Assembly: GCA_031407385.1 (NCBI GenBank)
Contig: JANOIH010000004.1
Location: 4,104 to 68,103, forward strand
Direction of reading: 5' to 3'
DNA: 64,000 bases
Source: Candidatus Altimarinota bacterium
GTDB taxonomy: Bacteria; Patescibacteriota; Gracilibacteria; BD1-5; UBA2023
The notes beneath the pieces were generated by a model. It was given only the letters and a program-made list of their open reading frames with translations. It was not told the DNA's origin and searched no databases. Each line of letters opens with the position of its first letter. Position 1 is the stretch's first letter. Both the position numbers and the translations under genes were made by a program. Positions 1 through 64,000 of the stretch are shown one piece after another.

Positions 1-277
1 CGTGAATCCGAAGATGAAGATCGAGACCGAAGCAGATGGACTCGACGCACTCCGCTTCGCGCTCCCACTCATCGAATCTGCTGACTATAGTTCACTCGAC
101 GCGCTGAAGACAGGGATCCTCGAGGCGATCGCAACCGCAGGGAAGAAAAACGGACAGATCCTCTGGCCACTACGAGTAGCCCTCTCTGGTGAAGAGTTCT
201 CACCATGAGCGTTCGAACTCGCATATATCCTCGGTCGTGATGAATCCATCCGCAGAATACAAAAAAATCTCGCATAA
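1..277 (+). CDS. gltX: Glutamyl-tRNA synthetase, C-terminal fragment (5' end outside window)
   Basis: ...ILWPLRVALSGEEFSP-(TGA 206-208 = G)-AFELAYILGRDESIRRIQKNLA. Matches the GltX C-terminal SPG.FE motif. Real stop TAA 275-277. Confidence 0.75.
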
Positions 278-313
278 GTCCTCCTAAAGACGAATACACT
301 TACTCAAAAACAT

Positions 314-703
314 ATGCAATATATATTCCTCAAGAACATCCTCGAAACCGTCCTCGCCAACTATGTCTGCCATAACTGTCAGAACCAGACCAACGAGCAA
401 TCCCTCCAAGTCACTGGTATCAGTTCCAGTGGTGTCGATCTGCATATCCACTGTCATGTCTGTGGGAACCATGCTCAGCTTGGTGCTGAGGTCAACACGC
501 TCGCAGCCCAGATGCTCGAGAGTGAGAATGGACGCAGATACTTCGAAGAATTCCTCTCTCAGGGTGGGAAGATCGGAGCCACTCTCGCGAACAAGTCAGG
601 AGAGCAACTCACTGAGGGCAATGGAAAAATCAACGATGCTGATATCATAAAAATCCACAACGACCTGAAAAATGCGAAAAGCGTAGAAGACCTCATGAGA
701 TAG
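314..703 (+). CDS. Hypothetical protein with CxxC...CxxC zinc-ribbon
   Basis: Intact 129-aa ORF with CHNC...CHVC cysteine pairs. Stop TAG. No family assigned. Confidence 0.5.
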   Translation: MQYIFLKNILETVLANYVCHNCQNQTNEQSLQVTGISSSGVDLHIHCHVCGNHAQLGAEVNTLAAQMLESENGRRYFEEFLSQGGKIGATLANKSGEQLTEGNGKINDADIIKIHNDLKNAKSVEDLMR

Positions 704-787
704 TAGGAAATAGATGAAACAAAGGATATAGGAGATAGAATAAAAACTCCAAAAATCTTCTTGACTTCTTCTCTATTACAGCAAAAT

Positions 788-822
788 CCTCCTACCTCCT
801 ACCTCCTACCTCCTACCTCCTA
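788..822. repeat. Five perfect tandem copies of heptamer CCTCCTA abutting the ATG of the next gene
   Basis: Direct reading: cctccta x5 at 788-822. The last A is the A of ATG 822-824. Confidence 0.9.
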
Positions 823-1220
823 TGTTCTCCAAGTTCATCGCTTTCATCCTCCTCTTCGCTGGACTCTATATCGTAGCGGTGTTCGTCCTCCCGGTACAGG
901 CTGATCAGTATGGGGATACTGAACTCAATGCAAAGATCCGCAATATAAAAGACATGAGTCTCAGTTATGCATCAGGATCAGAATCTCCTGCATCACTCGC
1001 GGATAAGCTCATGATCACAGGCAAGTCTGTCATCGACGAGACCACAAAAACGGCAGATCATATCCAGTCCACTCTCACCGAGAAAACCGAACAAGCCAAA
1101 AGAGCTGCAGAGTCAGCACAGAAGGCGTATGATGCAGTAGAACAAGCCAAAAGAGATTTCCAGAACCTCACGAACTTCTCGGGAAGCACACAAGTGAGTG
1201 TAAGTGGATCAATTCGATAA
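822..1220 (+). CDS. Membrane-anchored hypothetical protein (N-terminal TM, coiled-coil-like tail)
   Basis: 132-aa ORF. N-terminus FIAFILLFAGLYIVAVFVLPV is hydrophobic. Stop TAA. Confidence 0.55.
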   Translation: MFSKFIAFILLFAGLYIVAVFVLPVQADQYGDTELNAKIRNIKDMSLSYASGSESPASLADKLMITGKSVIDETTKTADHIQSTLTEKTEQAKRAAESAQKAYDAVEQAKRDFQNLTNFSGSTQVSVSGSIR

Positions 1221-1293
1221 GATGTGTCATTTCGAGCGAGTGGATCATTCCTCAGCCTCACTCTGTATAGTGCCTGTAGTGTCTGAGGTTTCC

Positions 1294-1367
1294 GTCATCC
1301 TGGGGTCTCTGAAGCTCAGGATCTCTATAGAATCTAGATCCCGCGGCACGAGATACCACGGGATGAC
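1294..1367. repeat. Divergent GTCAT...ATGAC double-hairpin element (MITE-like)
   Basis: gtcatcctg...caggat hairpin and atcccg...cgggat hairpin, bounded by inverted GTCAT/ATGAC. Same architecture as the 103-bp family. Confidence 0.4.
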
Positions 1368-1474
1368 AGAAACAGAAGAACTATACAGATCCAGAGAAAC
1401 AAACATTACAGAGATACAGAACGATAACTGTCTCCACTATTTACTATCTCTATCCACTATCTCTATCTTTTCTT

Positions 1475-2518
1475 ATGTCCTCTTCTTTTCGTTCTGAGCG
1501 CATCTCTCGTCACCAGACTCGCAAGTCACCTATCACGAAGAGTATCCAATTCTTCATGATTGGTATTTTTGTTATAGGAATACTTCTCTACATGCTCGTG
1601 CGCAATACTGGGAATACTGAGATCAATCCCAAAACCTACCTCATCGATAAATGAGCTTCTGTCCTCTCTCTGAACTCGGGATTGAAGTGGGGAGTCCCTT
1701 CATGGAGATATACTCTCTATGTTCGGTTCTTTGCACCACGTGATATCGTGCTCCAGGCAGGAGAATATGTGGCTACACGTGGCAGTACGATCGACTCCTT
1801 CCTCACCAAGACGATCGCGACACCAGTTCATAGTGATATCACGATCACGATCCTCCCAGGATGGAATATGTACGATATCGATGCATACCTCAGCGAGAAG
1901 AATATCATAGCGACGTGAGACTTTCTTCGCGTGGCTGCAGATCGATTCCGTGAGTATCAGGGAGCTTTCCCTTGGCTCTCGGGAGTCGAGAGTCTGGAGG
2001 GTTTTCTCTACCCAGATACCTATAGGGTACTCAAAAGTGCTACCGCACACGACGTGATCATGGTGCTCCTGCGAGAGTTCGATAAGAAGATCGGAGTGAG
2101 TTATACGGCACAGTGAGCAGGTGCATACAAGAAGCTCATCCTCGCATCGATCGTCGAGCGAGAGGAGCGCATCGATGCCAATCAACCGATCGTCGCAGGG
2201 ATACTGGAGAAGCGAGTACGTGAGGGGATTGCGATGGGCGCAGATGCGACTGTCTGTGTCGGCTACGCCAAGACTCAGAAGCAGTGTACTCCGAGTTTTA
2301 TCGGGAGCATCATCGCTGAGAAAAATCCATACAATACTCGAGTCAAGCAAGGATATCCACCAACTCCGATCGCCAATGTACCACTTCCAGCATGGAACGC
2401 AGCGATATCACCAGAAGACTCCCCCTATTATTACTACCTCCATGACAATGACGGCATTATTCACTACGGACGAACGAACTCAGAACATGTAGCGAACAAA
2501 AATAAATACCTCCAATAA
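1475..2518 (+). CDS. mltG: Endolytic murein transglycosylase MltG (YceG-like)
   Basis: N-terminal TM, LEGFLYPDTY, ASIVEREE and NPYNTRVKQGYPPTPIANV...HYGRTNSEH motifs. Three in-frame TGA join four track fragments. Stop TAA. Confidence 0.85.
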
Positions 2519-2536
2519 ATCTTCACTATCTATCCT

Positions 2537-3154: not shown

Positions 3155-3250
3155 AAAATATAAGGATATAGTCAATGTTGAAGCATCATTTTATTGACAA
3201 TAATAATATACTGAGTATATATACTCAGTTCCAACAACAGGGAGGTCAGA

Positions 3251-3394: not shown

Positions 3395-3426
3395 ATCTTC
3401 GCATAAAAACGAAGATCTTTTTCTTT
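3393..3426. terminator. Bidirectional intrinsic terminator
   Basis: agatcttcg-N8-cgaagatct stem followed by a T-run. Lies between convergent genes. Confidence 0.6.
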
Positions 3427-5202: not shown

Positions 5203-5619
5203 CTAGACGATAAAATGAGTAACAAATACAGCGATCATACCGCTCGTGACGAAGACGAGAGTAGCGACGATAGAGCGGAGAGAGAGTCGACCGATACCGC
5301 AGACAGCGTGACCGCTCGTACATCAGTTTGCCATACTGGTACCGACTCCGACGAGTATCCCTGCGATGATGGCGATGATGTATGAGGGGTTCGTATTGCT
5401 GATGTGATATCCGGGTACGATGTAGCTATAGAGTGCGACACCGAGCATGAGCCCCACGAGGAAGTAGTATCTCCAGTATTCGCTTTTGGCGAGCTTGCCC
5501 AGTATTCACTTCACGATGCCAGATACACCCATCACACGCCCGAGTCCTCATGCAAAAAGAAGTGCCGAGAGTCCGATGAGGGCTCCGCCGATGAGAGCGT
5601 TGATATAGAGTGGATTCAT
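5203..5619 (-). CDS. YeeE/YedE-family sulfur-compound transporter half
   Basis: ...SMAN-G(TGA 5323-5325)[17 protein letters not shown]. 138 aa with three in-frame TGA. Confidence 0.8.
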
Positions 5620-6081: not shown

Positions 6082-7248
6082 ATGAAACTCTTCAACATCA
6101 CCGATATATTCAACAACATCATAACTATGAGTCCCGAGACACTCGAGGCGTTCCATGATGAGCTGCACACCAACTACAAGAAGCTCCGCAAAGATCTCGA
6201 CGTGGACAATCTCCGTGTCCTCGGCAATCGTATCCAGACGGTCATCGATGGCAATATCAAAAAACTCGGACACAAAGAGCAACACAAGCTCCACAAGCTC
6301 GAGACACTTGCTCGTGAGATCAGCGAGACCGTGATCGAGATCGAGACCGCGCAGAAGAACGCCATAGAACTCGTAGATCTGGAGAAGAAGTTCGACAAAA
6401 AATACAAAGCCCTCAAAGAGCTCCCAAAAGAAAAAGCGAAAACTCATGTCCTCATCGCCATGAAGAAGTCTGAGATCAACTATGAAGAAGAGATGCTCAC
6501 CCTCCAGATCGAGCTCGTGAAGCTCCAGAAGTATATCCAAGAGTCAGGGAAGAAAGTACTTATCATATTCGAGGGACGTGATGCAGCAGGGAAGGGTGGC
6601 AATATCAAGAGATTCACTGAGTCACTCAATCCTCGCTATGCGAAGGTGGTTGCCCTCATGAAGCCGAGTGAGATCGAGAAGTGACAGTGGTACTTCCAGA
6701 GATATCTCGCACACCTTCCGAACGCAGGTGAGATGGTATTTTTTGACCGATCATGGTACAACCGTGCCGGTGTCGAACCAGTGATGGGATTCGTCGGGAA
6801 GCGCGACTATGAGAAGTTTATGGATGATGTACCACTTCTGGAGAAGATGCTCGTGAAGTCCGGGATCAAGATCATCAAGTTCTACTTCTCAGTATCCAAG
6901 ACCGAACAGGCAACACGATTCCACGAACGTCGTACGAACCCACTCAAGCAGTACAAGCTCTCTCCTATCGATCAGTTCTCTCAGAAACTCTGGGATCGCT
7001 ATACTCTCGCGGAATATGAGAACTTCTCCCGGACGCACTCAGACCATGCCCCATGGACGATCATCAACAGCGATGACAAGGAGGCATCTCGTATCAACTC
7101 GATCAAGTATATCCTAAACCAGTTCGACTATCCTGAGAAGATCGATGCGAGCAAGATCGAAGTCGATGACAAGATCGTCCATACAGGACGAGAGAAGGTT
7201 CGCCTCCTCGAGAAGGATGTAGATATGGCGAAGAGTCTGTTTGAATAG
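6082..7248 (+). CDS. ppk2: Polyphosphate kinase 2 with ~150-aa coiled-coil N-terminal extension
   Basis: GRDAAGKGG Walker A, ...EIEK-G(TGA 6682-6684)-QWYFQRYLAHLPNAGEMVFFDRSWYNRAGVE. 388 aa. Confidence 0.85.
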
Positions 7249-7313: not shown

Positions 7314-8090
7314 ATGCCATCGTATGATAGTATCACAACTGATATTTTGACCCCTATGTTTGAGGGAAAGTATCCTAATCCTCTTGCTGTCGGTCAGCTC
7401 GCGGATTGAGTAATAAAGACCGTTGCTCAACAAGTTAGTGGAACATTACTTGTTGCAGATATTTGATGTTGAACAGATCCTATATCACCAAGAATTTTTT
7501 TAAGAAATGAGGCAAAATTTCTTTTAGTCGATAATAATCCTACAATTGAACTAGAAAAATCTCACCTCCCTGAATATGTATCATTGGCACAGGTTGATAT
7601 GAACGATGCAAAGGCCATGAATGCAGCAAAAAGAGAGTTCTTTCATACTCACAAATCTCTCGGAAAAGGTAGTTTTGACGTTGTTCTCCTGTCAAATATA
7701 CTAAATTACTTTACTGATTGAACTACTCCTTTGAAACCATGAGAGATATCTCCTGTGATGCGGAACTTTTGGGTTAACTTCGTAGAAAAAAATCTCTCAA
7801 AAAAAGGAGTAGTAATTATCCAAAACGGTGATAAGGGTGCACGGTATGAAAATTTAAAAGAAGAACAAGTAAATGATTATTTTAGTCCTGCAATGGAAAA
7901 TTTGATTACAAAAAATTTCATTGATTCGTACTATTTTTGAATAGCATTTACATGAACGTCTTCATCTAATGAAAATATATCACTTGAAGCGTCACCTTGA
8001 TTTTGTTCATTGAAGGAATACCAGGTAATTAAGAATGAATGAAAATTATTAAAAGCAGTGAATCTACGAGTATTAAGAAGAAAGTCGTAG
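7314..8090 (+). CDS. Class I SAM-dependent methyltransferase
   Basis: Motif I LLVADI-G-C-G-TDP, with both Gly encoded by TGA (7464-7466, 7470-7472). Under code 25 the ORF runs to TAG 8088-8090. The last ~50 aa are uncertain. Confidence 0.65.
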
Positions 8091-8102: not shown

Positions 8103-9542
8103 TTATATCTTATCAACTATATTCCTCCCCGCCACATACCCACTCGCCCAACATATCTGTAAACTGAATCCACCAGTATACCCATCCACATTGAGCACCT
8201 CTCCTGCGAAGTAGAGATTTTTGCTGATTCTAGACTCCATAGTCTCTGGATCGATCTCATCTGTATTCACGCCTCCCGCGGTCACGAACTCATCCCCTGG
8301 TCGACGCTCGATTAGAGTTATGGGTATTCATTTTCAGAGGAGCTCTGCTATATGTTCGCGGTCTTTTTTGCTGATAGATGCCGCATATGTTTCGCGAATC
8401 AGAGGGAAGTGTTCATCAACGAATCCATCCACGAATCTTCGAGGAAGCTTATCTGCGAGGATACTCGTGATGAGCTTCTTCGGGTGTTCTTGGAACTCTC
8501 TCTTGAGGAACGTCTCCCACAGAGGTGTATCCATATCTGCGAGAGGCGCGAGATGGATGATTTTTGGACTATTGCTTCCGAGCTTCTCCCAGGCAATCCG
8601 AGATGAGTACATGAAAGACAGCGGCCCAGAGATCCCGAAGTGCGTGAGGAGGATCGGTCAAGTGAGTTCTCCTATCCTTGCTTCTGGGAATGCGAGACCC
8701 GAGAGCTCATGTGTCCACTTCTCCCGCGAGAGAAAGCTCGATAGCGATGGTCCGAGTGGTGTGATCGTATGCCCGAGTGCGCGAGCGAAGGCATAGCCAT
8801 CACCAGTAGAACCAGTATGGCTATATGCGCTCCCACCTGTCGTCACGACGACGATATCTGCGGTATAAGAGCCTTTGGGCGTAGTGATTGTATATTTCTG
8901 AGTTTTTTTTGTTTCTCATTGTTTTCTTTCCTGGTGTTCCTGTCATTTCGACCAAAATCCATCTGCTTCTGTGAAAGATGAAGCGGAGAAATCTTGCCCG
9001 ATTAGAGCAGGATTTCTCGATTCCGAAAATCACGGATACAGATTTTCTTCACTCGAAATGACAGAATCAACACCTTCCCCATAATGCAGAGTCACTCTAT
9101 CGCGATACTTCGCAAATACTCGCTCGAACACATTCACTATATCATGTCCGTCATCTGAGATGGGGAATACTCGCAGATCCTCTTGCACCTTCAGTGGGAC
9201 GCCATGCGACTCGAACCAATCATACACTTTCTGTGGTCAGAACTTGCCCATCGCCTTGCGGATGAACTCCCACCCTCGAGTATACTTGCTCGCGAGGATA
9301 TGCTTATCGGTGATACTCGTTGTCACATTGCACCGACCACCTCATGAGATGATAACTTTATTCCCTGGGGTTTTGTTTTTCTCGAAGATATGGATCTCAT
9401 ACTCCTCCCCTTGTAGGGGAGGTTGGGTGGGGTACCCCCTCTGGCTCCCCCTAGAAGAGGGAGAATCAGACAGAGACTCCAGTATCGTCGCAGCAGTCAT
9501 GAGTCCTGCAGCGCCTGCTCAGATGATAGCTATCGTTTTCAT
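8103..9542 (-). CDS. HI0933/BaiN-like NAD(P)/FAD-dependent oxidoreductase
   Basis: IAII-G(TGA 9519-9521)-AGAAGL, ISGGGRCN, TGGSAYSHTGSTGDGY, THFGISGP and TAGGVNTDE...LYFAGEVLNVDGYTGGF. 479 aa assembled from 5 track fragments. Carries two in-frame repeat insertions. Confidence 0.85.
8942..9062. repeat. GTCATTTCGA...TCGAAATGAC MITE-like element inserted in frame in the flavoprotein CDS
   Basis: 10-bp terminal inverted repeats at 8942-8951 and 9053-9062. Translates without TAA/TAG as VISSEENLYPGFSESRNPALIGQDFSASSFTEADGFWSKGQ. Confidence 0.6.
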
Positions 9543-13548: not shown

Positions 13549-16500
13549 TTAGAGATATTTCTTCAGGATTGCCTCTTTCTGAGCTGGGATATTCGCGAGT
13601 TCTGATTCGAGTACAGAGATCTCTACATCTATCTGCTCGATCTCTGTGACTATACGCTGTTGTTCTGAGAGAAGAGGAAGTGGGATTTCAAAAGATGAAT
13701 ATTGTTGAGCATTGATATTTGGCTGAGCTGTTCCAGCTCTATTGTTCAATACCCAATTCTTATAGTAATCAGCTTTTAGTATAAAATTCAGAAAACTCGC
13801 ATCAAGAATATCTTCTTTGGTTCTAAATCGAATTAGATATCCTGCATATAATGCTTTGCCGAATTCTTCCCTATAGAAGAATGTCTTTCCTGCTGTTGCT
13901 CATGATCGTGCAAACAAAAAATCTCCATCACTTAGTATATATTTTTCTGCCACTGTTTCTGCTGTTTTCCATTCATTATTGAGCTTCCCACTATCGTTTA
14001 TATCTGTGATTCTGATATATCGATAATCTTTTTCTGGATTTCATTCTGTGGCACTTTCATTGGCTCCATACATTGGTTCGTGACATACCACACCAAGTTT
14101 GCAAAGATTATATTGTCCATAATAGCCATTAGCCCTCTTAACGATATCAGACTTATGTACTCCTAATTTCTCCTTGTTCTTAGCCTCTTTCTTCTCTAGT
14201 ATCTCCATCTCATCGATGATCTGTTGTTGTGTATCGAGAGATGGGAGTGGGATTTTGATATTTGATAAATCCTCACCATATACATGAGGCTGTGCCTGTC
14301 ATCTCTGCAATCCATATACCTCTGACTGAACTGTTTTCAGAAAAAGAGATATCAACTTTGTTGATATTATCGACTCATCTTTCGACTGTACTGTATTGCA
14401 ATCTGATGCAAAAATAGGAGTCGTGAAATAGTTCACAAAACCTGCATATGCACCTGATGCACTTATTGTGATAATATCACCTGTTCGATTGGACTCATTA
14501 TGAAAATAAGCTTCTTGTTGTCCTCATGCAATGACAGGAATAATTCAATCTTTGATTTTATCCTTTGTTATTGAAGTTCATTTCCATATCTTAGCGACTT
14601 CTCCGAGGGAGACTAATTTATTACTTTTCCAGATATCCTCATATTTAACTTTTTTTTTTACGGAAAGTGATATCGTTTTCTCAAACTCAGCTCGATCGAG
14701 CGTGAGCATATCGACGAGACTAACATGAGATATATACTGCTCTAGACTCGCAACTATAGGTCGATCATGGCGACCTGAGAATGCATCGAGGATATATGTA
14801 TTGACTCGCTCAGGACTCTCTACATCGGCAGGATCGAATAGGAGTGTACACTCATCGATCGTCTTGCCACGACGGATCGGATGGATACCCTCATCTCACT
14901 TGCGGTTCGAGAACTCATATCCGAGGAAATTTTTCTCATCTTGCTTGTCTCCGCTCTTCACAAGGACGATCTCTTGTCCGTATGCGAGGATATAGTAGAG
15001 TATCTTCTCTCGTTCAAGAGTGATGACCTGAGCGAGCCAGTCCTTTGGATTTTTGGATCTTATCTTTTTCTGGTAGTCGGTGTATATTTCATGGCTCTGC
15101 ATAGCCTCACTCGGCTCTCCAGATATGAGGCTGATATAGTCATCGAGCGATATCGTCTGCCAGACATGAGAGACATATTTCGAAATCCCATTTTCGAGGA
15201 CAGTATTATTTGTGAAGTTTGTCTTGATATTGATATCCTTATGATTCTGGAAAAAGTTCTTAATTCCAGTTTCGATACTTTCAAAATCATAGTTGCTCCG
15301 TCTCCTCAAGAATAATATCACTGTATTCGTCCCTGTTGCCATGAATGTCCCACTCCCGAGCTCGACGATCGCGACGAACTCAAAATACTTAAGAAGTATC
15401 TCACGAGTCTTGGTATATATGCCACCATTGGATAATATACTCGATGGGAGGATGATCGCAGCGATACCTCACTCTGCGAGGAGCTGCTTGGTCCGCTCGA
15501 TGAAGAGACTCTCTATCTGTGAGCTCTGATCCGTGAGGGCATCATAGAGGACGAAGTCTTTGTCTGCGGAGCGATTTTTCAAATTCCCTTTGCAAGCCGA
15601 TACGCTATACGGAGGATTGGAGAGAACAAAGTCAAATTGCCCGTTATCCTGAGTTCCTGGGATTATTTTTTTGAGCTTCTTCGAATAACTATCTGAATGC
15701 GTGAAACTATCGAGTCCGTCACCATGGATGACATTGGCGATACCATCACCATGGAGATAACACCCAACCTTGGTCGTCTTCACCAGACGATAGTCGAGCT
15801 CGACACCATAGATATACTCATACGCCCACTTGAACCCATGTCTTTGCCAGTCCTCGAGCTCTTGTCCTGCTGACCGAGGGAAATCCTTGACCTCTAGTGT
15901 CTGGATGATATTCTGGAGCTCTTCCATCGACTCAGTGAGGAAGTGTCCGCTCCCTGCAGCGTAGTCGATGATATTCGGGAGGAGCTCACCTCTGGCTCCT
16001 GACTTGAGTTTCTTCTCAGTGATCTGACGCATCGGGATACTCTTGCAGATGAATCTCGCGATCGGTACAGGGGTGAAGAATTGTCCTGCCTCTTGCTTGA
16101 GTCCTGTTGTGAGCAGGAGCTCGAAAAAGTCACCTAAAAATGGTTGTTTTTTTGCATAGCGAAACCTGTATCCCTGGAGAAGTTCGACTACTTCTTTGAG
16201 GACTTTTGCATTTTCTTCAAATGTCTCTTCATCGAATACTTCTTTGATAGCGAACTCGTTGTTCTTCTGGAGACGGATACGAGTGAATTCTCTGAGAATA
16301 TCTTGTTTGATCTTCTCATCAGTGATAGCCATACCGAACTTCCGATGGAAATCATCATCAGAAAGATCACTGATATCTTTTTCGAGAAAATCCTTCATTC
16401 CCTTCTTATAGAGGTCTGAGAGTCTCTTCTGAAATGATATCGAGTCATCTTCTCCTTCCTTCCACTGAAAATCTACTTCCTCGTCTTCGTCGGTACGATC

Positions 16501-17286
16501 TTCGTCTTTGATCTTGCAGAGAAAGAGTGTGAATATCTTATTGAATGCATTTGGCTTGTCAGATACAGCATTGTGACGGAGGATCTCGAGGAATCGATTG
16601 AAGATAAAAGAGCTATCCTCTTGTCGGATCTCTGCGAGATTGCCGAGGGAAAGTGCCTTGCTCTGGAAGTCATACGCTCGAGTCCAAGGCTCGAATATAC
16701 CATTCTGCTTGGAAAACTTGTTCCATCTATTGTAGAGATCCTCGGTATTGCTCGCCATCTGCCGATAGTCCTCTTCTACCTTGATGATCTCATTACGATA
16801 TTGTATTTCTTTGCCGTCGAACTGTGACGCATAGAGTACGAGGAACTCTGCACTACGATCTTGCTGAAGATATGAGAGGAGTTGTCCTCACTTTTTCTGA
16901 GTATTGAGCCATTCTTTATCGAACTCTCGTCCCCAGGTTTTGCACTCGATCATGAGATATGCCTGACCATCTCGACGGACAAGGATATCGAGCCATCCTC
17001 CTGCTGCACCATGTCCGACAGTGAATTTTTTCTCTAGAACGATATCTTCGGGACGATATCCCTTCTCAAGCAAACGATTCACGCACTCGAGTACAACCCA
17101 GTTCTCTTCTTGGGAAAAGTTGCGAGTCGTATCTCGTTCTGACTTGATCCGTTTGTTATAATCGATAGTTTCTTTTTCAAAATCTACTTCAATAGTATAA
17201 TTATCAAAAGATGTGAACTTCTTCACAAAAATCCCCGTAGTATTCTCTTTCGGTGTGAAACCAAGCTGTATGACGAATTTTTTCAT
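13549..17286 (-). CDS. Single-polypeptide restriction-modification-specificity enzyme (Type IIB/IIG, AloI/CjeI-like architecture), 1,245 aa
   Basis: One frame free of TAA/TAG for 3,738 nt, with 9 TGA. N-terminal PD-(D/E)xK-like GGWLDILV...LMIECK. gamma-N6A methyltransferase motifs FFTPVPIA, IIDYAAGSGHFL and LSNPPYS. C-terminal HsdS-like part has two TRDs and two conserved helices (LPSLDTQQQIIDEM, LPLLSEQQRIVTEIE). Confidence 0.8.
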
Positions 17287-17656: not shown

Positions 17657-19528
17657 TTACTGAACTACAACCACTACCTTCGGCTCCTTCCCTGCCTCAT
17701 GCAACATCACATCACATGCCTTGCGCTCGAGGTATTGGGAGAAGGCCATAGCATCCTTGAATCCTGAGAGATCCTTGAGTACTGAGTGTACACACTCATC
17801 GAGAGACTTCTCGAGTCCTGGCACAGTGGCGACTGGGGGAAGACCAACGGTATCGTACTTGATATGATAGCCGGTTGTCTTCTTCGAGATACCGATGACG
17901 AGGACTCCCTGAGAGGAGATCTGGTAGCGATCATGGAGCTCTTGCTCCTGAGTATAGCCGACCATACGACCATCGATGGTGATGAGCTTCTTCGAGACGT
18001 ACTGATCCGTCTCGCGCATCTCAGTCGCGGTGAACTCGAGGAGTTTTCCGTTACGCAGGATTGGGACGTTTGCTTTTGCGTAGCCGAGGTCATACGCGTT
18101 CCGTGCGTTCCCACGCAGCATATGAGGGAATCCATAGACAGGTACGTAATACTCTGGCTGGAGCATGGTGATCATCTTCTTGGTATCCTCTTCCTTCGCA
18201 TGTCCACCCGCGTGGATCTCGGACTCCTTGTAGTGGTGGATGCGTGGACCCTGCTGTGTGATGAGGTCGAAGAGTCCCTGTACGGCACGCTCGTTCCCCG
18301 GGATCACAGATGATGAGAATATGATCGCATCGTTCGGCTTCAGAGTCGTATCCTTGGATTCACCCGTGACGATACGCATGAGAGCCGCATAGCGCTCACC
18401 CTGCGCACCTGTACAACAGATAGTCACTTCGTTGTCTGGGAGCTTGGCCGCCTGTTCCATACTGATGATCGTCCCTGGTTGCGGTCGGACGTATCCGAGC
18501 TTGATGGCGATATCTATATAGTTGTTCATCGAGCGACCGAGAAGGACAACCTTGCGGTTGTACTTCTCAGAGGTCGAGATGATGAGCATAACACGATCGA
18601 TGATAGAAGAAAAGGTTGCCGTGATCACGCGACCTGGTGACTTCTCAAAAATCTCTTCGATCGAGTGGATAACTGCAGACTCCGAGATAGAAGAACCGAG
18701 GAGATGCGCATTCGTCGAGTCAGAGAAGAGTCCACGGACTCCACGCTTCCCGAGGGCTTCGATCCACTCATAGTTCGTCGATGGACGATTCGGGAGTGGA
18801 GTCTTATCGAACTTCCAGTCACCAGTATGGACGAATCGACCTACTGGCGTCTCGATGAGGAGACCGACTGAGTCAGGGATCGAGTGATCCACGACGAATG
18901 GAGTCACTTGGAAGTGCTTGCCCATCTGGACTGGACGATAGCGGACATACTCGGAGAGGTTCGTGAGAGTTGCCTTCATATCTCCTTGCTTCATCTTGAT
19001 GAGCTCGTATGCCATCGCGGTCGCATGGATCGGAGTATTGCGTCCGAGTTGTTCCATGAGGTAGTAGATCGCACCGATATGATCGATATGACCGTGGGTG
19101 ATACAGGTTCCCACGATCTTCTTCCCACGACAGTAGGTGAGATCTGGGATCGAACAGTTGATACCGTACTGGTACTGATCAGCGAACTGGAGACCCATAT
19201 CGATGATGAGCATCTCATCTTCGTATTCGAATCCCATACAGTTCAGACCGACTTGCTCAGTTCCACCGAACGGGATCACACGAAGTGTCCCCTTCTCGAG
19301 TGGCTTCGCTCGCTCCTCTGGGATATGGAGGAACTTCCTGAGTGCCTGAGTTGGCGTGAGGAATGGATATGACCTCTTCGGTCGGAAGCTATCCTCGAAG
19401 ACAAAAGAGTCACCAGGACGAAGGTTAGGGTTGATGTTTTTTCATGAGTCAAAGAAATTCCGGAATCCCGGTTTTCTCTCTCATTGTGGAGCAGTTCCAC
19501 TATTACTCTGGAAGCGTTTGTTACGCAT
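17657..19528 (-). CDS. rnj: Ribonuclease J (active MBL/beta-CASP enzyme)
   Basis: LRVIPFGG, CITHGHIDHIGAIYYL and beta-CASP/C-terminal domains. The 83-aa basic N-terminal extension is readable across two TGA. ATG 19526-19528. Confidence 0.9.
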
Positions 19529-28021: not shown

Positions 28022-28711
28022 ATGAATGAACAAAAATCTACTGAAGCATCATATGATATTCGCATGAATCGATGATCTTTCTGATTGGAATTAAATCTTC
28101 GTATACGAGGACTAATATTTCGTACACTTATAGAAAAATATCTCGACTCTATTCCTAAACTTCCTGATTGAGTTGTGGTTGATCTCTGATCAAATGCTGG
28201 CTACAAAATACCAAGTCTTCTCAGGGCTTTCCCTGAAAGGAAAATTATATGAATAGATAACCACTCTCCTTCAATCCAGAAATGAAAAGTTCTTTTTGCT
28301 GGAAATAGCAAAGTACAAATGAGAGTATGAAATGCTATGAAGCTCCAGGATAGCGTAGTAGAAAAAGTATCACTTATATTTACTTCTCAGATGCTCCATC
28401 ATTTTGATTTTGCAGAAAGAATGATGATTCTTAAGGAAACTATTAAAACTCTTCTACCGGGAGGCATATTGCTTGTCTCAGATACTTTTATAGATAAGGA
28501 TTCTATTCTGGGGAATCTACTGAAAACAGGATATAAGCATATAGCAAAATCTGATGCATATCATAATATACCACCGGAACAAATGAAATCAGAATGAGAA
28601 GAAATAGGTTATGATTTTATCTCAAGGCATGATACTACGTCATTTAAAAAAGTAGGATTTTATCCTTCAAGTTTGTTTGTTTTTCAAAAACCACTAGAAC
28701 AACCTATGTAA
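28022..28711 (+). CDS. Class I SAM-dependent methyltransferase
   Basis: VVVDL-G(TGA)-SNAGY motif I. 229 aa with 9 in-frame TGA and no TAA/TAG (checked). Confidence 0.7.
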
Positions 28712-29987
28712 TCTCCTTCATCTTCTCAACCAACCTCTCTATATCCTCTCTCGTATTGTAGAGATAAAGGCTCACTCGGAGTGATCCTCATATCCCGAGA
28801 GTAGTATGGAGTACATCGGTACAGTGATGACCCGATCTGACACAGATATCTGCATCAGCGAGCTGCTCAGCGATATCGTTCGGATGATGAGCGTCAAAAG
28901 CGAATGAAAATACTCCGAGGCGATTCTCAGGGTTTTTTGAACCGAGGAGTCGTATCGATGATGGGAGGGCGGAGAAGAGCTCCAGAGCATACGCTGTGAG
29001 TTCTTGCTCATATTTTTCTATAGTCGCAAATCCCCCGATAGAGTCGATATAGTCGAGAGCCGCGAGGAGTGAGACAGCTCCTGCGATATGTGGAGTGCCT
29101 GGCTCATGACGGAACGGGAGACCAGCAGGCATATATCACTCAGTTGTGACAGAGTTGATCGCACCCCCACCGCAGAACGCTGGATCCATCTTTTGCAATA
29201 GATCCTTGCGACCATAGAAAAACCCAATCCCAGTATCACTCATCACCTTGTGTCCAGTTGCTACGAAGAAGTCGATCCCATATTGCACGACATCCGTCTC
29301 CATATGTGGGAATCGCTGTGATCCATCGAGGATGAAGATAGGTCTCGTGAGCTCCTTTGTAAAGGAGCTGTCACGGAGTGACTGAGGATTTTTTTCAGCA
29401 ACCAAATCCCCCCTGCCCCCCTTTACAAAGGGGGTATCCAAACCATCAAACATCCCCTTCACCCGATCCAAATTCAACACCTCTCCTGTCACATTCGATG
29501 CTCCTGTGATCGAGAGGACTTTAGCATGAGGTAACTTGGCCTCCAGTGAGTCATAGTCAAGAGTCCCATCTGGATGGAGCTCAACCCAATCGATGAGAAT
29601 CCCGTACTCAGTGGCGATGATCTGCCAGGGGACGATATTGGCATGATGCTCGACTTTTGAGAGGAGAACCGTGTCCCCTTTTGTGAGATATCCTGACTTC
29701 ACGAGACCCTGAGCAATCAGGTTGAACGCGTAGGTCGCGTTGTAGGTGAATACGATCTCTGCTGGACTCGCATGGAGTTTGCTTGCTACAGCCGCCTTGG
29801 CTCGGTCATAGAGCAATGAGCTCTGTGTGGAGAGATCATATGCTCACCTATGTATATTGGCATAGTCAGTCGCAAAAAAATGCGATATTGCATCGATGAC
29901 TTGTTGCGGCTTTTGTGCAGTGGACGCAGAGTCGAGGTAGACAAGCTCGGGATGAGTGGTGAATATGGGGAAGTCAGATCGGAACAT
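28704..29987 (-). CDS. sufS: Cysteine desulfurase (SufS/class V aminotransferase)
   Basis: YLDSASTAQKP, ANIHR-G(TGA 29844-29846)-AYDLS, ATGHK, HEPGTPHIAG and RSGHHC. 427 aa. Contains a ~37-aa hairpin-repeat insertion. Confidence 0.85.
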
Positions 29988-38000: not shown

Positions 38001-39376
38001 AGATCATCATACGAGAGGCTGAAGTGCTGAGAGCTCCTCAGGGCGCCCCCATCGACAGGAAGTCACTCTAGTTCCACTCCATAACCATGATTGTCTCCTA
38101 CCTCAATAGGATTTCCATCTGCATCTCGTACCTTTTTGATACGCATGAATTGTGCCCCTCACTTACTATCTTGGAATCGTATAACTGGATTCGATGTTTT
38201 GAGGAGATCGATATTCTCTATGCTCGTTCCTCCATCTGCAGTTCTCAGTCCGGTAGTGAGTGAGTCGATGAATCCTTCATACCGATCCCATGTATCATCA
38301 TACTCTTCTCATCTTTTGCGCGCTTCTGCCTGTTTTTGTCTTTTGATATTTCCGAGAATATCAGTTCATCTAGGATCTATAGATTCTGGCGCATCTATGA
38401 CAATCGTTCGAAATATTTCTTGCGAGAGTTTTCTACGAGCAGTATCGTTCGCGATAATGGTACCGATTTTTGTAGCATCAAAATCTGAGGCCGCTATCAT
38501 ATATGTCGTACTCGCCTCAAGTCCACGGATAAAAGAGTCCTGCTGATCTGGCATAAGGCTCGTGTATCATTTTCCCATCTCTTTTTCAGCAAATAACCTC
38601 AGGAAGTCTGGTGGTATCAATCCTGTGTCGTTCGCATGCTTGATAGTGATACTTGCTCACAGTGCTGACAGAACTTCTTTCTTGCGATCATTTGAGGCTC
38701 CTTGATACACCCCCAAGATAAAGTCGATATCAGAGCCATCTGGCACTTGATTAAATTCATGATAATTTTTATGGATCCCCCTGAATCGTGACTTCTGTTC
38801 AGGAGTGGTAAGATACATATTCTTATCATAAAATATCTGTTCAAAATCTCTTTTTTCTGAGGGATTCTCTCACTGAAGACCGGGAAATGTCTTATAAACT
38901 AATTTTCTCATGAGATGAGTACGTGAAGCATAGTTCTTGAGTTCATCTTCATCGAGATCACTCAGACTCGTGCTGAGGATAGTGCTCCAGTCAGCTCGTT
39001 GTGTTCTGATATTCGGGAAGAGTTCAAGTGCACGATCATGGGTCCGTTTTCTCATAAAAACAAGATCTATTGCCATTCGTAAGATCCTCTCTCCGATAAT
39101 ATTATCTCATGAATTCGTCGCAATATCCGCCTCTTTGATAGTATCCCACTCTGTTGAATTTTCACGACGAAGATCATTCATGTGAGTGCGGACTTTGTTA
39201 TGATATTCATCTCGCTTTGCCTTATAGGTATCAAATTTTTCTGGCTGAATTGGTTGACCAAATTCTCGAAAAATACCTTCCTTAAGAAGGTTTTCCACTG
39301 TATTTCCTGTTTTCTTTTTTTTCAGTACTTCAGATGACTCTGGAGATCATTCTGCTGCACTATTTAGTCCTGTCAT
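35093..39376 (-). CDS. Giant orphan protein (1,427 aa), no recognisable domain
   Basis: Every codon of the frame checked: 38 TGA and no TAA/TAG over 4,284 nt. ATG 39374-39376 (alternative 39401-39403), stop TAG 35093-35095. Joins 7 same-frame track fragments. Confidence 0.75.
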
Positions 39377-39481
39377 AATTGGTAGAGTTACTTTCCCTTG
39401 CATAATAGCAGAAAATACGAAAAAACACAAATAAAAAATCCATCTTTTAGATGAATTTTTTGAGATTCTTTTTTGAATGAA

Positions 39482-39558
39482 TGGTGCCAATGAGTGGGCT
39501 CGAACCACCGACCTCGGCGTTATGAGTGCCGTGCTCTAACCAGCTGAGCTACATTGGC
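39482..39558 (-). tRNA. tRNA-Met (CAU), elongator type
   Basis: Acceptor GCCAATG/CATTGGC fully paired, loop CTCATAA, GGTTAGAGCAC as in elongator Met, encoded CCA. Confidence 0.85.
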
Positions 39559-55073: not shown

Positions 55074-58000
55074 CTACAGACTCATGATATACTTCATAAC
55101 TTCGACACTTTTCTCGATCTTCACACGCTCACGCTGCATGATGCGGATGATGTAGGCGAGAGCGCGAGATTCACGAGATGGGACGTTGAGAGTCTGGAGA
55201 GTAGTGGCATCAGAGTAGGCACCTTGGAGTGCTTCTGATTTTTGCGGAGCTAAGAGTATCAGAGAGCGAGTGATATTCTGTATGAGCTGACGTCCTGACT
55301 GTCGTATCATCTGGGCTCGATCAACAGATGATACTTGATCAGCCTGGGCTGATACGACTGCATCATGGATCGGAGCAAACAGGGAGATATATGAGTTGAG
55401 GAGGTATCCAACTGGCAGAGTCGTACCTGAGAGAGTTCGCTTCGAGAGGAAGAGTTCTGATACAAGTCCTGGAGTTGTATTAGTAGGAGAATTGGTATTT
55501 ACTGTATTCGGGAGATTCACCGTTGGGAATGATTGTGATCCTCCTCCGCCACCTCCTGGACCAGCTACTGGAATGGTCGAGATAACTGGTGGATGTGGAT
55601 CGATCACTGTGATCATCACAGTTACTGGAACTGTAGTAGATATGCCATCAGTCACCGTATAGGTGAAGTTGTCTGATCCAACATATCCGAGAGCTGGAGT
55701 ATAGACGAGGAGTCCTGTCGATGAGAGAATACCAGTCCCATACAGAGCTGGTGTCACGAGTGTGAAGGTGAGTCCGACACTATCGACATCAGTTGCGGTG
55801 AGTGAGCGAGTCAGTGAGTTATTGGTCTCGAGGTATCCAGTCAGTGAGCCTCCAGAGAGGGTCGTTCCTGAAGAGATCACCATGTTCCCTGTGACACTCG
55901 AACTCGATGGGAGAGAGACTGGAGTATCGTTCACACAAGTGACATCACTGATCGTCACCGTGGTGACTGCCGAGAGTGCGAGAGCCGTATCTCGTGCCTG
56001 GTAGGTAAATGTTACAGGGCTTACAGTACATGCATTCGCGGTAGGAGTAAATACCACTCCAGTTCCGACAACCGCGACACTTCCCCCTGATGCAGGTTGA
56101 GTGAGTGATGTGATCGAGAGGGGGTTATTTTCTACATCCGTGTCATTGGCAAGGACTGTGATCATAAGTGGTGTGTCCTCCGTTGCGGAGACAGACTCTC
56201 CAGTTGCAACTGGGGCATCGTTCACACAGGTGAGAGAGACAGAGATTGTTCCCGTATTGGAGAGCCCTCCGAGTGGATCTGTGATACGATAGTCCACTGA
56301 GTCAGCACCACAGGCGTTCGCGGTTGGAGTATAGACGAGGTTATTTCCTGAAGCGGTGACGGATCCGTTAGAACCATTGGTAAAGGTCGAGAGCGTGAGA
56401 ACTCCTCCTTCGACATCCGTGTCATTGATGACTGGTGAGATGATGAGTGTCGTATCTTCAGTTCCGGTAGTAGTATCGTTATTGGCGACTGGGAGATCGT
56501 TCATAGCGGTGATCGAGATACTTCCTGTGACGACGAGTGAGTCATTGACTCCGTCAGAGACATGGAAGGTGAAGGTATCTGAACCGTTCGTATTCGCAGT
56601 TGGCGTATATGTGAAGGCACCTGTTGATGAGAGAGTGAGTATTCCTTGTGTTACGTTGGTATCAAGGATATATGTGAGTGGAGTTCACTCGATATCTGAC
56701 CCCGTGAGGACATCCGCAAGTGGGGTATCTTCGGAGGTAGTGAAGGCTCCTGAATATGCTGTTGGAGGAGTATTATAGTTGTTTGGTTGGACTGTGATAT
56801 CTACAGTACTCGTGAGAGAGAAGAGGACCCCATCAGAGACATGGAAGGTAAAACTCTCAGCTCCCGTATATCCAACTGGTGGTGTATATGAGAATACACT
56901 TCCTGTGATGACCAGTGATCCAGTTGCAACAGGAGTATCGATGATATAGCTAAGTATATCTCCATCGATATCTGTCGCTGAGAGTGTCCCCGTGAGGACA
57001 TGTCCACTATCCGTCTCGATATTGCCTGTGACATTGTATGTTGATCCTGTGGATGTCGGAGCATCATTGACACAGGTGACAGTCATAGTCACGATACCCG
57101 TATTCGACAGAGATCCTGAGAGATCCGATATACTGTATGAGAACGTATCTATTCCACAATAGTTCGCGACTGGAGTATACGTCAGGAGATTCCCTGAGGC
57201 ACTAACACTTCCGGATGCAGCTTGTGAAAAAGCAACAAGACTCATGCTGTCTCCGAGATCTGGATCAGTGTCATTACCAAGTGGGGTTGTGTCGAGTGTT
57301 CCATCTTCTCCTACCGTGAAGCTATCTGCGATTGCTGTTGGAGCATCGTTCACAGCGGTTATCGTGAGAATTACGGTCTCGGTACTCGAGTTCAGGACAC
57401 CATCTGTGACATGGAAGGTAAAACTATCTGAACCGTTATAGTTCGCATCTGGCGTATAGGTAAAGATCCCTGTTGATCCGAGTGAGAGTGTACCGTTCGA
57501 TACATCTGCATCGAGGACAAAAGTCACTGGTGTCAGATCTGGGTCAGATCCGGAGAGAGTGGTATTGATCGCGACATCTTCTGTCGTGAGGAACGATCCT
57601 GAGTCAGCGACTGGAGCCTGATTCGTAGTAGATACAGTGATATTGACGACTCCAGTATTGGAGATATTCCCATCTTGATCGATGATCGAGTACTGTATTG
57701 TATCTGGCCCGAGGTAGAGAGAGTTCGGCGTATAGCGGATCTGATTCGCTACGATAGAAGCAGTCCCGCTCGTTGGAGCGGTGAATCCTGTGATCGTGAG
57801 CGTCTGTGCTCCATATGGTTGATCTGCATCGGTATCATTGGCGATGACGTCTATATCTGCAGTCGTATCCATCTGCACATTGACCGTGTCATCTGTCGCA
57901 ACTGGGACATCCTGTACAGCCGTGACGGTGAAGGACATCGTGGCTCCTGATGAGTCCACGATACCATCATTGGCGACGAAGTTGAAGCTATCTGAACCAT

Positions 58001-60329
58001 TGTAGTTTGCGTTCGGAGTATATGTGAATCCTGATCCTACGATCGAGAGTGTTCCGTTGGTTGGGAGAGTCGTTGCAGAGAACGAGAGGGTATCTCCATT
58101 GATATCTGATCATGAGAATACATCCATAACAGCCATATCCTCAGAGACAGAGAAACTACCAGAAGACACCTCAGGAGCAAAGTTAGAACCTGGGGCGACG
58201 GTGATATATACAGTTCCTGTATTCGAAGTAGCACCTGACTGATCGGTGATCGTATACATGAAGCTATCAGCTCCCATGTAAGCAATCGATGGAGTATATT
58301 CGAACTGAGTACCATTGACTGCGAGAGTACCATTGGATGGCAGAATAATACCAGTGATACTAAAAGTCTGAGACTCATACCCACTATCTATATCTGTATC
58401 ATTCGCGAGGACATCGAATGTTGCCATGACACCTCCTGTTGCGTTCATATTATCATCGATCGCGACTGGAGTATCGTTGGTACAAGTAGTAGTCACCGTT
58501 GCTGTAACTGGATCTGAGTATCGGAGAAATTGGTCAAATGCTCTCCAGTCAAACGCATCTACTCCACAGAAGTCTGGATTCGGCGTATATTCCACGAGAC
58601 CTGAGACTCCATCGACTGTTATTGTTCCATTGGTTGGATCGGTGAACTTCTCGAAATAGACAGTATCTCATGATGAGTCTGTCGCCATCATCGTACCGGA
58701 GAACATCATATCTTCTGATCCAGTGAGAAAGAGTGGAGCTGTAACAGGTGGCTGATTCTGTGTCGTGATATCCGCGGTACAGATATTATCTCCGATATTG
58801 TTCGTAGCAGTGAGGATATAGTTGTTCACACTATCGTTGAGTGGTGGATAGTATACTCCTGATCAGACAGCTGATACAGAGGTATCCATACTACCACCTG
58901 TTGCTGTTGGTTCGGTGAGGATGGTCGAGAGTGTATTGGTGACATTCCATGAGAGTGTGACAGACTCACCATTGGCGATACTTCCAGCAGAAGTATTGAA
59001 GCTACACACAGGTGGACGGAGAATATTAGGAGCATTGTTCCAGAATACGATCTTTGCACTATATGCATTGACATTGGTTGGCCAAGCGACCGTTGTATTG
59101 TTGGTATCGACATACTGTGGACAGACTCCACCTGGACACGCCTTATTCACAGCACTGGCTCCAGTATTGACGAGGAGATGAGCTTCATTGGTTCGTGGAT
59201 TGAGTACTCCAGTACTGATATAGTTCTTATAACCGAAGTGAGTAAAAGTAACGGCGCTCGTATCCAAACTAAGGATATCATCCTTATTATAGGTCGTCAT
59301 ACCTCCTGAAGCAGTCTGGATCTCTACGATTGGAAGAATTGCCTTATACGTATTGAGATATGTATTTGCTGAGACTGTAGCAAGTGTGCCGACCGCATCG
59401 AACTGATCATGAGTCGATATCATCGGATGATCTGGATGCCAAGTGAGGATCGTATTCGAGTCGATCGTATTGTTTTCAGCGCTTCCGAGGGTTGTCGATA
59501 TGATAGAGATCGCAGACTCCTGTGGATTGTAGAATGTATTACTGTTGATAGTGTTCGTATCCGTATCAGTGAGTACTATAGACTTGTTTCCGCCTGAGAA
59601 GATATTGCCCGTGATAGCATTACCAGATGATGTAGCACCAAGAGCAACCCCAAGAGTTGAACCAGTGAGATTGGATACGAAGTAGTTCTCGACTATAGAG
59701 GTATTGTAGGCTCATTCTACTGAGATACCTGCATTGATCGTATTTTTGAACGTGTTGTGTGTGATAGATACATCCGTATTGGCACCCAGGAGGATACCAG
59801 TACCACCAGAGGTAAAATCCGAATCCTGGATGATGATATTCGTTCCACCGAGTGAGAGATCTACTTGGGTAAGAGTTGTACTTGGGAATGTGATACCTGA
59901 GAGAGTCACGTATGAAGCTCCTGAGAGGAATGATATATTGGTCGCTCCGGTAGACCCAAGTACTGGCTTATTGTTCGCGGTACAACTACTATATGAACCC
60001 ACGACGATCTGAGATCCTGAGATACCAGAGTCATCTATAGCGAGTGGATCCGTCCACGTCTCTCCACACTTCAGGAGGATCTGATCTCCAGGGAGGAAGG
60101 CCTGCGCACTCACATGTGTGAGCGACTGCCATGGAGTCCCGAGAGTGAGTCCATTGTTCGCATCACTTCCGAGTGTCGCATCCACATAATAATTAGTATT
60201 ATTCGCGAACGTGATCTCTGTGAGTGGAGAGAAGAGTTGGAGAGTGAGAGAGACGAGCGTTATCAGAGCGACAGCTCGTGATGGTGATGACTTTTGTAAC
60301 ATAGGGAGAGAAGTAAAATACTCTCTCAT
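55074..60329 (-). CDS. Giant surface adhesin (~1,751 aa): signal peptide, right-handed beta-helix, ~11 cadherin/VCBS-like repeats
   Basis: Five same-frame track ORFs joined over TGA at 56685, 58110, 58668, 58863 and 59712; gaps checked free of TAA/TAG. Repeats of NDAP.A..D......ED....I.VL.NDTD.D. Stop TAG 55074-55076. Start ATG 60329 or 60302. Confidence 0.8.
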
Positions 60330-60451
60330 TTGATCACAATTATCACATACAAGCAAAATATTCGCCTTGCCGAGCAAGAGAAATATTTTGTTATAATTGA
60401 ATTGCGGCCTTCATCACTTGCTTTTGATCTCGCTTTCTATATCATACTCTT

Positions 60452-61558: not shown

Positions 61559-61570
61559 CTCTCATACTAT

Positions 61571-62110: not shown

Positions 62111-62147
62111 GATATAGTATACTTTTTACTTGTAACTCTCATACTCT

Positions 62148-62357
62148 ATGACTATCACTCCCCTCGAACTCCTCTACATCGCACTCACGATCGCAACCAT
62201 ATCACTCACCATCCCACTCTCGATGATCCTCTGGCGGACCTATCGGATGATGGACCGTGTCGAGGATATCCTCGCCTTCGTAGACCGTATCGTCGGTTAT
62301 GGGAAGGAGATCGAGAAGATCCCGATGGCGATCATCGAGAAGATCATGGGGAAGTAA
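62148..62357 (+). CDS. Small membrane protein (69 aa)
   Basis: TM LELLYIALTIATISLTIPLSMILW. Stop TAA. Followed by a terminator. Confidence 0.5.
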   Translation: MTITPLELLYIALTIATISLTIPLSMILWRTYRMMDRVEDILAFVDRIVGYGKEIEKIPMAIIEKIMGK

Positions 62358-62360
62358 TTC

Positions 62361-62396
62361 AAAAATCCCTCCTGAACACTCGGGAGGGATTTTTTT
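62361..62396 (+). terminator. Intrinsic terminator
   Basis: aaaaatccctcc-tgaacac-tcgggagggattttttt. Confidence 0.65.
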
Positions 62397-62658
62397 GATT
62401 TTTCGGAGCTTTGCCTCTGATTTCTTTTTTGCTTCTTTCTTTTTGTGAATTTCGTAGTACCAATTGCTTCTTCCGTTATGTTGAATTTTGACTATCTGTC
62501 AGCGAATATTTTCGTAAAAATTCCGAACGTTTCTTAGTCTTTGGAATTTTAGAAAATGAGCTGGAAACAGATAGCAAAATGAGGCATGGAAGATCTGGAA
62601 GGCTTTTTTGGAGATTATCTGGCGAGAAACGAGCCCGATAAGATCCTATGCAGAGCTG

Positions 62659-62679
62659 TTACTTTTTGCCAAAAAGTAA
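62659..62679. repeat. Hairpin repeat TTACTTTTTG-CCAAAAAGTAA (copy 3 of 3)
   Basis: Lies inside mosaic repeat region 62400-62800, which also shares ggattgcttc and cctcgcgggtg-cgg segments with 19790-19825. Confidence 0.55.
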
Positions 62680-62803
62680 GGGGAATGGGTTCTAGGAACC
62701 TGGATTGCTTCACCCCAAGGGTACTTCTCCCCCAGGAGGACTTCCATACTTCGCAAGGGGCGCAGCTTCGCAAAGGGGCGCGACCTCGCGGGTGGCGGGA
62801 TCT

Positions 62804-63232
62804 TTATTTTTGCTTCAGACTCGTATCGATAGACTGGAGTGTCCTCTCCATACGTTCGAAATTAGATCGATAGTTCGTCGCCTCAGTATACTTGGAGAAC
62901 TCTGCCTGAACCTGATGTATATATGGCTCGATGCGTGATCCGATAAGTGGCAGATCGATGAGGAGTGAGAGTGTCCAACCGATGAGCGCGATGACGATAG
63001 TGACACCCACGAGCGCACCGAACCCACGTGCGACCCCGGCGACGAAGTTGGGCCAGAGCATCTTCCATGGGGATCTGATATACTCCATGAACTCATCGAG
63101 ACCAGTGGACTCGATCGCATCGATGAGTCACTCGATCTTGAGGATCTCTGATTGACTGAGAGACTCGATCGTCCTCTCTTTTTTGGTACGCATTTTCTTG
63201 ATCTGTGTTTGTTCAGTGACACTTTTTTCCAT
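62804..63232 (-). CDS. Small membrane protein (possibly DUF5665-like)
   Basis: WPNFVAGVARGFGALVGVTIVIALIGW. 142 aa over TGA 63128-63130. The DUF assignment is from memory only. Confidence 0.5.
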
Positions 63233-63340
63233 ATATATTGGGATTATATAGTGATTCTATACAAAGGGGTGAAAATCGCAAATGAGAAAATATTTGCAAA
63301 TAATAGAAAACTCCTATAATTATGCATAGAAAAAGTACTG

Positions 63341-64000
63341 TTGATTTCCAACGTTCTACTTTATACTTTATACTCTTTACTCTTCCTTCCTTTGGACCCC
63401 AATCAAATATTAATTTTTATAGGACTTATTATACTTTCAGCTTTCTTTTCAGGCACAGAGATTGCATTTTTGAATATATCCAAACATACAGTTCAGGGAC
63501 TCTTACGAGATAAACGGTTCGGTGCAAAGTCACTCGAAATTGTAAAATCTGATATGGATAAGCTCCTTATTACTGTGATGATCGGGAATAATCTCGTCAA
63601 TGTTGGAGCATCTGCTCTGGGGACACTTGCGAGTCTCTCCCTAGCAAAATCCCTCTCACTTCCTGATGAGTATGGAATACTGATAGCAACAGGAGCCGTT
63701 ACGATGATAATCTTATTATTCGGTGATATCACACCGAAGACTATATTTGCTCGTTATAGTGCCCCGATTGCACTCGTCGTTGCTCCGATATATAGAGTCC
63801 TGATTCCTCTATTTTGGCCACTTTCCTTCTTTCTCAACATATTTGTGAAGTTTGTAGCAAATCTGCTTGGCAATGGCGACTATGTGACGAAGATTACGGC
63901 ATCTGAAGTTGAAGCTTTTATCGATATGTCTCATGAAGGTGGTGCGGTGGAGGAGGACGAGCGTCGCCAGATCAAGAATCTCCTCTCTCTCCCAGATATG
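63341..64000 (+). CDS. CNNM/DUF21-family (hemolysin/CorC-like) membrane protein, 3' end outside window
   Basis: LSAFFSGTEIAF...VMIGNNLVNV...FGDITPKT...GAVEEDERRQIKNLL. No in-frame ATG; putative TTG start at 63341. Confidence 0.7.
   Translation, partial: MISNVLLYTLYSLLFLPLDPNQILIFIGLIILSAFFSGTEIAFLNISKHTVQGLLRDKRFGAKSLEIVKSDMDKLLITVMIGNNLVNVGASALGTLASLSLAKSLSLPDEYGILIATGAVTMIILLFGDITPKTIFARYSAPIALVVAPIYRVLIPLFWPLSFFLNIFVKFVANLLGNGDYVTKITASEVEAFIDMSHEGGAVEEDERRQIKNLLSLPDM

Follow-up and report, generated by a model that had tools for sequence, protein, structure and literature searches.

UGA decoded as glycine: translation table 25 in a Candidatus Altimarinota genome of the Gracilibacteria

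The stretch of DNA considered here, hereafter the window, comprises 64,000 nucleotides (nt) of a Candidatus Altimarinota genome (positions 4104-68103 of contig C36 in assembly G000, which totals 1.09 Mb in 46 contigs, with a GC content of 45% and a completeness of 91%). At least one TGA is found in 34 of the 39 open reading frames (ORFs) of at least 150 amino acids (aa) in this window. An initial annotation, made from the sequence alone, proposed that UGA is not a stop codon in this organism but is read as glycine, as in translation table 25 of Gracilibacteria and Absconditabacteria, and that genes called with the standard code (table 11) are consequently broken. This proposal has been borne out by alignments, by a tRNA with a UCA anticodon, by the presence of release factor 1 (RF1) without release factor 2 (RF2) and by the lineage of the organism, although some of the individual sites on which it was built have fared less well.

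TGA is present on the expected strand, and in frame, at all seven coordinates put forward as invariant glycines, and once it is translated the GltX, YeeE, PPK2, flavoprotein and SufS genes that contain these sites are recognised by Pfam, while a methyltransferase-like ORF falls just below the cut-off. In the HI0933-like FAD flavoprotein (8103..9542, minus strand; 9 TGA; Pfam HI0933_like, 2.5e-66), TGA 9519-9521 occupies the position of the first Gly of the GxGxxG motif and faces G in G050, a complete standard-code genome from the candidate phyla radiation (CPR). Site 9237 also faces G in G050, and TGA 9342-9344, in the SGGGRCN motif, faces G both in that genome and in PDB entries 4cnj and 2i0z. 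Three further TGA of this gene (9030, 8943 and 8916) lie within a stretch of ~40 residues (8916-9032, minus strand) that is unmatched in G050 and PDB homologues, which would fit an in-frame insertion. The YeeE/Sulf_transp membrane protein (5203..5616, minus strand; Pfam Sulf_transp, 1.4e-10) has TGA at 5548-5550, 5506-5508 and 5323-5325, the last of which falls on the G of the GGC motif found in both repeats of YeeE (PDB 6leo) and reads GGG, GGA, GGT or TGA in relatives.

The other sites are more varied. The gene for the cysteine desulfurase SufS (28704..29987, minus strand; 427 aa; 3 TGA; Pfam Aminotran_5, 1e-104) is reduced by table 11 to 28788-29132 plus 29136-29816. PDB alignments cross its TGA sites, and the TGA of the HR-G motif (29844-29846) faces G in Bacillus subtilis SufS (5j8q) but A in 6a6e. 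The polyphosphate kinase PPK2 is encoded by a single gene (6082..7248, plus strand; Pfam PPK2, 9e-91), which table 11 cuts into 6082-6684 and 6733-7248. Its alignment with Francisella PPK2 (PDB 5ll0; 1e-86) spans TGA 6682-6684, with Asn at the site, and 27 relatives have TGA (8), GGN (8), Thr (6), Ser (3) or Lys (2) there. In the fragment encoding the C-terminal anticodon-binding domain of GltX (2-274, plus strand, 5' end open; Pfam Anticodon_2, 3.4e-21), TGA 206-208 faces Ser in G050. The notion of invariant glycines is upheld only in part, and not in PPK2 or GltX. The weakest cited case is the methyltransferase-like ORF (7314..8090, plus strand; 9 TGA; Pfam Methyltransf_31, 26.1 bits for a cut-off of 27), two TGA of which (7464-7466 and 7470-7472) lie within a putative motif I (D-I-G-C-G-T-D) and are presumed by us to be glycines from the textbook form of this motif alone. 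A PDB search with this ORF found no homologue and it adjoins PPK2 in none of 29 relatives; it may be strain-specific or fast-evolving. Single PDB columns are informative only if they are conserved, and TGA is also found at variable sites, therefore statistics are needed rather than anecdotes.

A greedy set of non-overlapping ORFs was built over the whole genome under four codes. Table 11 gave a coverage of 72%, a median ORF of 106 aa and 107 ORFs of at least 300 aa, which rose to 92%, 236 aa and 412 ORFs, respectively, when TGA was a sense codon, but only to ~80%, 112-122 aa and 130-147 ORFs in controls in which TAG or TAA was a sense codon. The broken ORF track is therefore real and the gain is TGA-specific, the TAA and TAG controls being nearly flat; as had been anticipated, split genes become single long genes. 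TGA represents 11.6% of glycine codons (~9 TGA per 1000 codons) and most window genes therefore hold at least one and look like fragments or pseudogenes under table 11. Homology-supported in-frame TGA were found on 40 of the 46 contigs (97.6% of bases), including those that carry the UCA-anticodon tRNA and RF1 described below, and the bin is therefore coherent. Some conserved genes, probably highly expressed ones, seem to avoid TGA, since rpoB (C10:16637-19945) has no in-frame TGA, compared to 57 in RpoB of the relative G145, and contig C8 has only 25 TGA across 42 homology-supported genes.

The meaning of TGA was read from a comparison of all stop-to-stop frames of the genome with G050 (1,136,458 bp, RF2 present), in which TGA was written as X to avoid alignment bias and only the best-scoring frame per locus was kept (322 alignments, 99,992 codons). 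As predicted in the initial annotation, the residue facing the 837 in-frame TGA is most often Gly (39.1%, against a background of 7%, i.e. a 5.4-fold enrichment), while Trp (3/837, 0.36%, 0.43-fold) and Cys (0.36%) are rare. In the same alignments GGN codons face Gly in 56-62% of cases and TGG faces Trp in 37%. Among the 62 scored codons, TGA alone departs from table 11 in its commonest and most enriched partner. CGA and CGG (n = 895 and 317) still face Arg (35% and 37%, respectively), with no Trp signal, and AGG remains arginine, therefore the extra arginine-codon reassignment of some Absconditabacteria is absent here. For 751 TGA, in 215 genes, the alignment continues for at least 30 residues downstream. 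That re-joined genes end in TAA or TAG, and never in TGA, had been taken as a sign of table 25. The argument is circular, because this is true by construction, but in the 181 alignments that reach the C-terminus of the homologue these stops are found a median of 3 residues later. Initial tallies, which included all six-frame ORFs with matches, were rejected because antisense frames of homologous genes also aligned and polluted the counts; the 7% interchange of TGG to TGA that they gave was spurious and, like the Arg and Cys partners, was gone after the best-frame filter.

A second, independent test was provided by 380 kb of the congeneric genome G126 (97 coding alignments, 74% identity). The 146 TGA of the window's genome in these alignments face TGA (43) or GGN (62) in G126, while the 287 TGA of G126 face GGN (189), TGA (43) and in no case TGG. 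Conversely, none of 188 TGG was found opposite TGA, though the two codons are a single transition apart. TGA thus interchanges synonymously with GGN among close relatives.

The tRNA-Gly with a UCA anticodon that this code calls for was found outside the window (C6:6650-6728; locus L139:1501-1579), as a single gene. The other relevant tRNAs found by ARAGORN are tRNA-Gly(GCC), tRNA-Gly(UCC) and one tRNA-Trp(CCA); apart from tRNA(UCA), only the latter serves the UGN box in the assembly. tRNA(UCA), which scores 44.2 bits with the general tRNA model of Rfam, carries G1:C72, C2:G71, G3:C70 and U73, the elements of a published rule for glycine identity (PMC8629427). Its acceptor stem (GCGGGGG, followed by U73 at the 3' end) resembles those of tRNA-Gly(GCC) and tRNA-Gly(UCC), unlike that of tRNA-Trp (AGTCCCA..., with G73). 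A 79-nt tRNA(UCA) is present in the seven same-order genomes searched (7/7, 86-94% identity), and across the order compensatory, both-sided changes are seen in five stem pairs of the acceptor, D and T stems, with 99% of cells paired. A distance of 5 nt separates this gene from tRNA-Gly(GCC) in G146. The anticodon arm, which does not vary among the same-order genomes seen, has a 6-bp stem (CTAAGG/CCTTGG) and the loop CUUCAAC (C32-U33-UCA-A37-C38), and the 10-nt D-loop has no GG and hence no G18G19 pair. No description of this 6-bp anticodon stem and GG-less D-loop in the tRNA(UCA) of the order was found in the literature searched.

One alternative, which we consider very improbable, is that UGA is mainly glycine but ambiguous, either because the U34 of tRNA(UCA) also reads UGG or because tRNA-Trp(CCA) reads some UGA, which would result in low-level mixing of Gly and Trp. 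This wobble risk has been raised before (PMC8629427; PMC13092985) and the unusual, strictly conserved anticodon arm of tRNA(UCA) could be viewed in that light, but there are zero TGA/TGG interchanges in the cleaned alignments and the earlier 7% signal was the antisense-frame artefact mentioned above. The tRNA-Gly(UCA) of the order differs from that of its sister recoded family, and it is conceivable, but rather unlikely, that it is a structurally atypical form whose peculiar features could be a lineage-specific guard against reading of UGG by U34.

Release factors complete the picture. There is one gene with an RF-1 domain in the assembly, on contig C27, which has the PET and GGQ motifs and scores 452 bits with the prfA equivalog (cut-off 423) and 258 bits with prfB (cut-off 370), i.e. 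it is RF1. The expected absence of RF2 was confirmed as no prfB was found in the assembly, 91% complete as it is, and the single-contig genomes G145, G147 and G153 of the same order are likewise without RF2. More generally, 114 of the 121 genomes in a sample of the phylum have prfB above cut-off, compared with none of 41 relatives from the same genus, family and order as the window. The RF1 genes of these relatives themselves hold up to 17 in-frame TGA. A single release-factor match and no prfB above cut-off were also seen in a 100%-complete, 0.7 Mb CPR genome from another class of the phylum (G120), the RpoB of which is free of in-frame TGA and whose top tRNA-Gly-like matches include no tRNA(UCA).

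ORF lengthening and loss of RF2 would fit just as well with table 4, the code of Mycoplasmatales and several insect endosymbionts in which UGA means tryptophan, but this is exceedingly improbable when only 3 of the 837 TGA face Trp, TGA and TGG never interchange in the congener, tRNA(UCA) shares its acceptor stem and U73 with tRNA-Gly, and tRNA-Trp is CCA only. There is equally next to no chance that TGA are real stops and that the genes that contain them are pseudogenes, selenoprotein genes or the result of errors in sequencing or assembly. Many short adjacent ORFs do share a frame under table 11, and ARAGORN labels the UCA tRNA 'SeC', but the effect is TGA-specific and genome-wide, homology runs past 751 TGA, positions are conserved or are GGN in relatives, and there is no RF2 found to terminate at UGA. 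As for selenocysteine recoding, UGA would be rare and aligned to Cys or Sec, but Cys is hardly ever opposite TGA (0.36%), and there are ~9 TGA per 1000 codons, no search for selA or selB having been made. Selenocysteine tRNAs have an 8-bp acceptor stem and a long variable arm. In contrast, the acceptor stem of tRNA(UCA) is 7 bp long and its variable region 4 nt, and it is therefore not a tRNA-Sec; it also carries U73 and matches the general tRNA model, with no tRNA-Sec match reported.

The lineage of the organism is in accord with glycine as the meaning of UGA. The loci closest to the RNase J gene of the window (78-89% identity) come from metagenome-assembled genomes named Candidatus Gracilibacteria. 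In the window's class, RF2 is present in 70 of the 91 sampled genomes and missing in the window's order and in two families, f81 (7/7) and f93 (2/2). In-frame TGA are found in RpoB in exactly these three groups, although G000's own RpoB has none. A tree of RpoB, a single marker from which G140 and G148 were left out (wrong frame, branch length 10), groups the window's order and the recoded family f81 in a clade (support 97/96), which fits the known sister pair of BD1-5 and Absconditabacterales in the GTDB class JAEDAM01 (PMC13695967). A distinct tRNA(UCA), 74 nt long and bearing glycine identity elements, is present in family f81. A placement of the window's genome outside the classic recoded clade had been suspected, since five sampled genomes of the same class all have RF2, but was dropped because the class mixes RF2-positive families and three recoded lineages and because the order sits with f81 in the RpoB tree.

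The third of these lineages, f93 (G185 and G196; loci L263 and L264), has no RF2 and 58-79 in-frame TGA in RpoB, but groups in the tree with RF2-bearing families (96/93), apart from the window's order and f81. One clade of all recoded lineages gave p = 0.033 in an approximately unbiased (AU) test, which was post hoc and made on data with a compositional bias. A tRNA(UCA) was not found in f93 with a covariance model built from the tRNA of the window's order. The family is reminiscent of the table-25 lineages, misplaced or separate, to which PMC13695967 refers, and it may represent a second origin of the code. G178 (family f90; 81% complete) is also without RF2, yet has no TGA in RpoB. On the minus strand of its locus L179, at ~1501-1576, a gene resembling a tRNA combines a GCG acceptor stem, U73 and CCA with TCA where the anticodon is expected; it has G33 and an aberrant T-loop (GGCAGTA), and is not called by ARAGORN.

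Given the in-frame TGA that we observe, their statistical equivalence to glycine codons, the conserved tRNA gene, RF1 without RF2 and the lineage, we are all but certain that the window's genome belongs to a Gracilibacteria (BD1-5-type) member of the CPR that uses translation table 25, in which UGA is glycine. UGA would be decoded by the dedicated UCA-anticodon tRNA, which would be charged by glycyl-tRNA synthetase because the glycine identity set (G1:C72, C2:G71, G3:C70, U73) is kept; RF2 would have been lost and RF1 would terminate at UAA and UAG only, so that UGA would never be read as a stop. Charging of tRNA(UCA) with glycine and incorporation of Gly at UGA are assumed by analogy with published work on SR1 and BD1-5. 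Several points weigh against this scheme. RF2 cannot be called absent with full certainty, because the assembly is 91% complete and in 46 contigs; two of the seven cited sites (PPK2 and GltX) are not conserved glycines; and Gly is opposite TGA in a smaller share of cases than opposite GGN (39% vs ~58%), partly because X scores nothing in the alignments and partly because TGA is commoner at less conserved sites.

Glycine-decoded UGA in this genome is a known code in a known lineage, hence of low novelty. Table 25 has been reported in BD1-5/Gracilibacteria (Rinke et al., 2013, as cited in PMC8629427; Hanke et al., 2014, PMC4032931), and in JAEDAM01 (PMC13695967). There is no essential difference between these systems and the one described here. 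UGA aligns to Gly, the identity set of tRNA-Gly(UCA) is the same, RF2 is lost and RF1 kept, the genome is of the CPR type and ~1 Mb in size, its nearest relatives are named Candidatus Gracilibacteria, and its GC content of 45% falls inside the 0.21-0.53 reported in the literature. The SR1/Absconditabacteria code (Campbell et al., 2013, as cited in PMC8629427) is similar in that UGA is glycine via tRNA(UCA) in the absence of RF2. However, a change of CGA/CGG to Trp has been proposed in Absconditabacteria (Shulgina and Eddy, 2021), with extra reassignments in some of them (PMC8629427), and CGA and CGG are still arginine codons here. The parallel with table 4 in Mycoplasmatales and insect endosymbionts is limited to capture of a stop codon after RF2 loss in a reduced genome, since the amino acid and the identity of the tRNA differ.

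The choice of code determines how the rest of the window is read. Besides the genes already discussed, a 1245-aa restriction-modification fusion (N6_Mtase and Methylase_S; 13549..17286, minus strand; 9 TGA) appears as several ORFs under table 11, and a 1767-aa surface protein or adhesin with Big_9, cadherin-like and beta-helix domains (55074..60377, minus strand; 5 TGA) appears as five. The 623-aa RNase J (17657..19528, minus strand; Pfam RNase_J_b_CASP, 1.6e-40) has 2 TGA near its N-terminus. A 1471-aa frame in table 25 at 35093-39508 (minus strand), a putative gene in which no Pfam domain was found, contains 38 TGA, ~3 times the genome-average density. Under table 11 about one-fifth of the coding sequence goes missing and window genes mostly look like fragments, pairs or pseudogenes, and all other findings in the window thus need to be read with TGA as glycine. 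The genome is a further well-supported member of a reassignment known since 2013, without the CGA/CGG-to-Trp step that has been proposed in Absconditabacteria.

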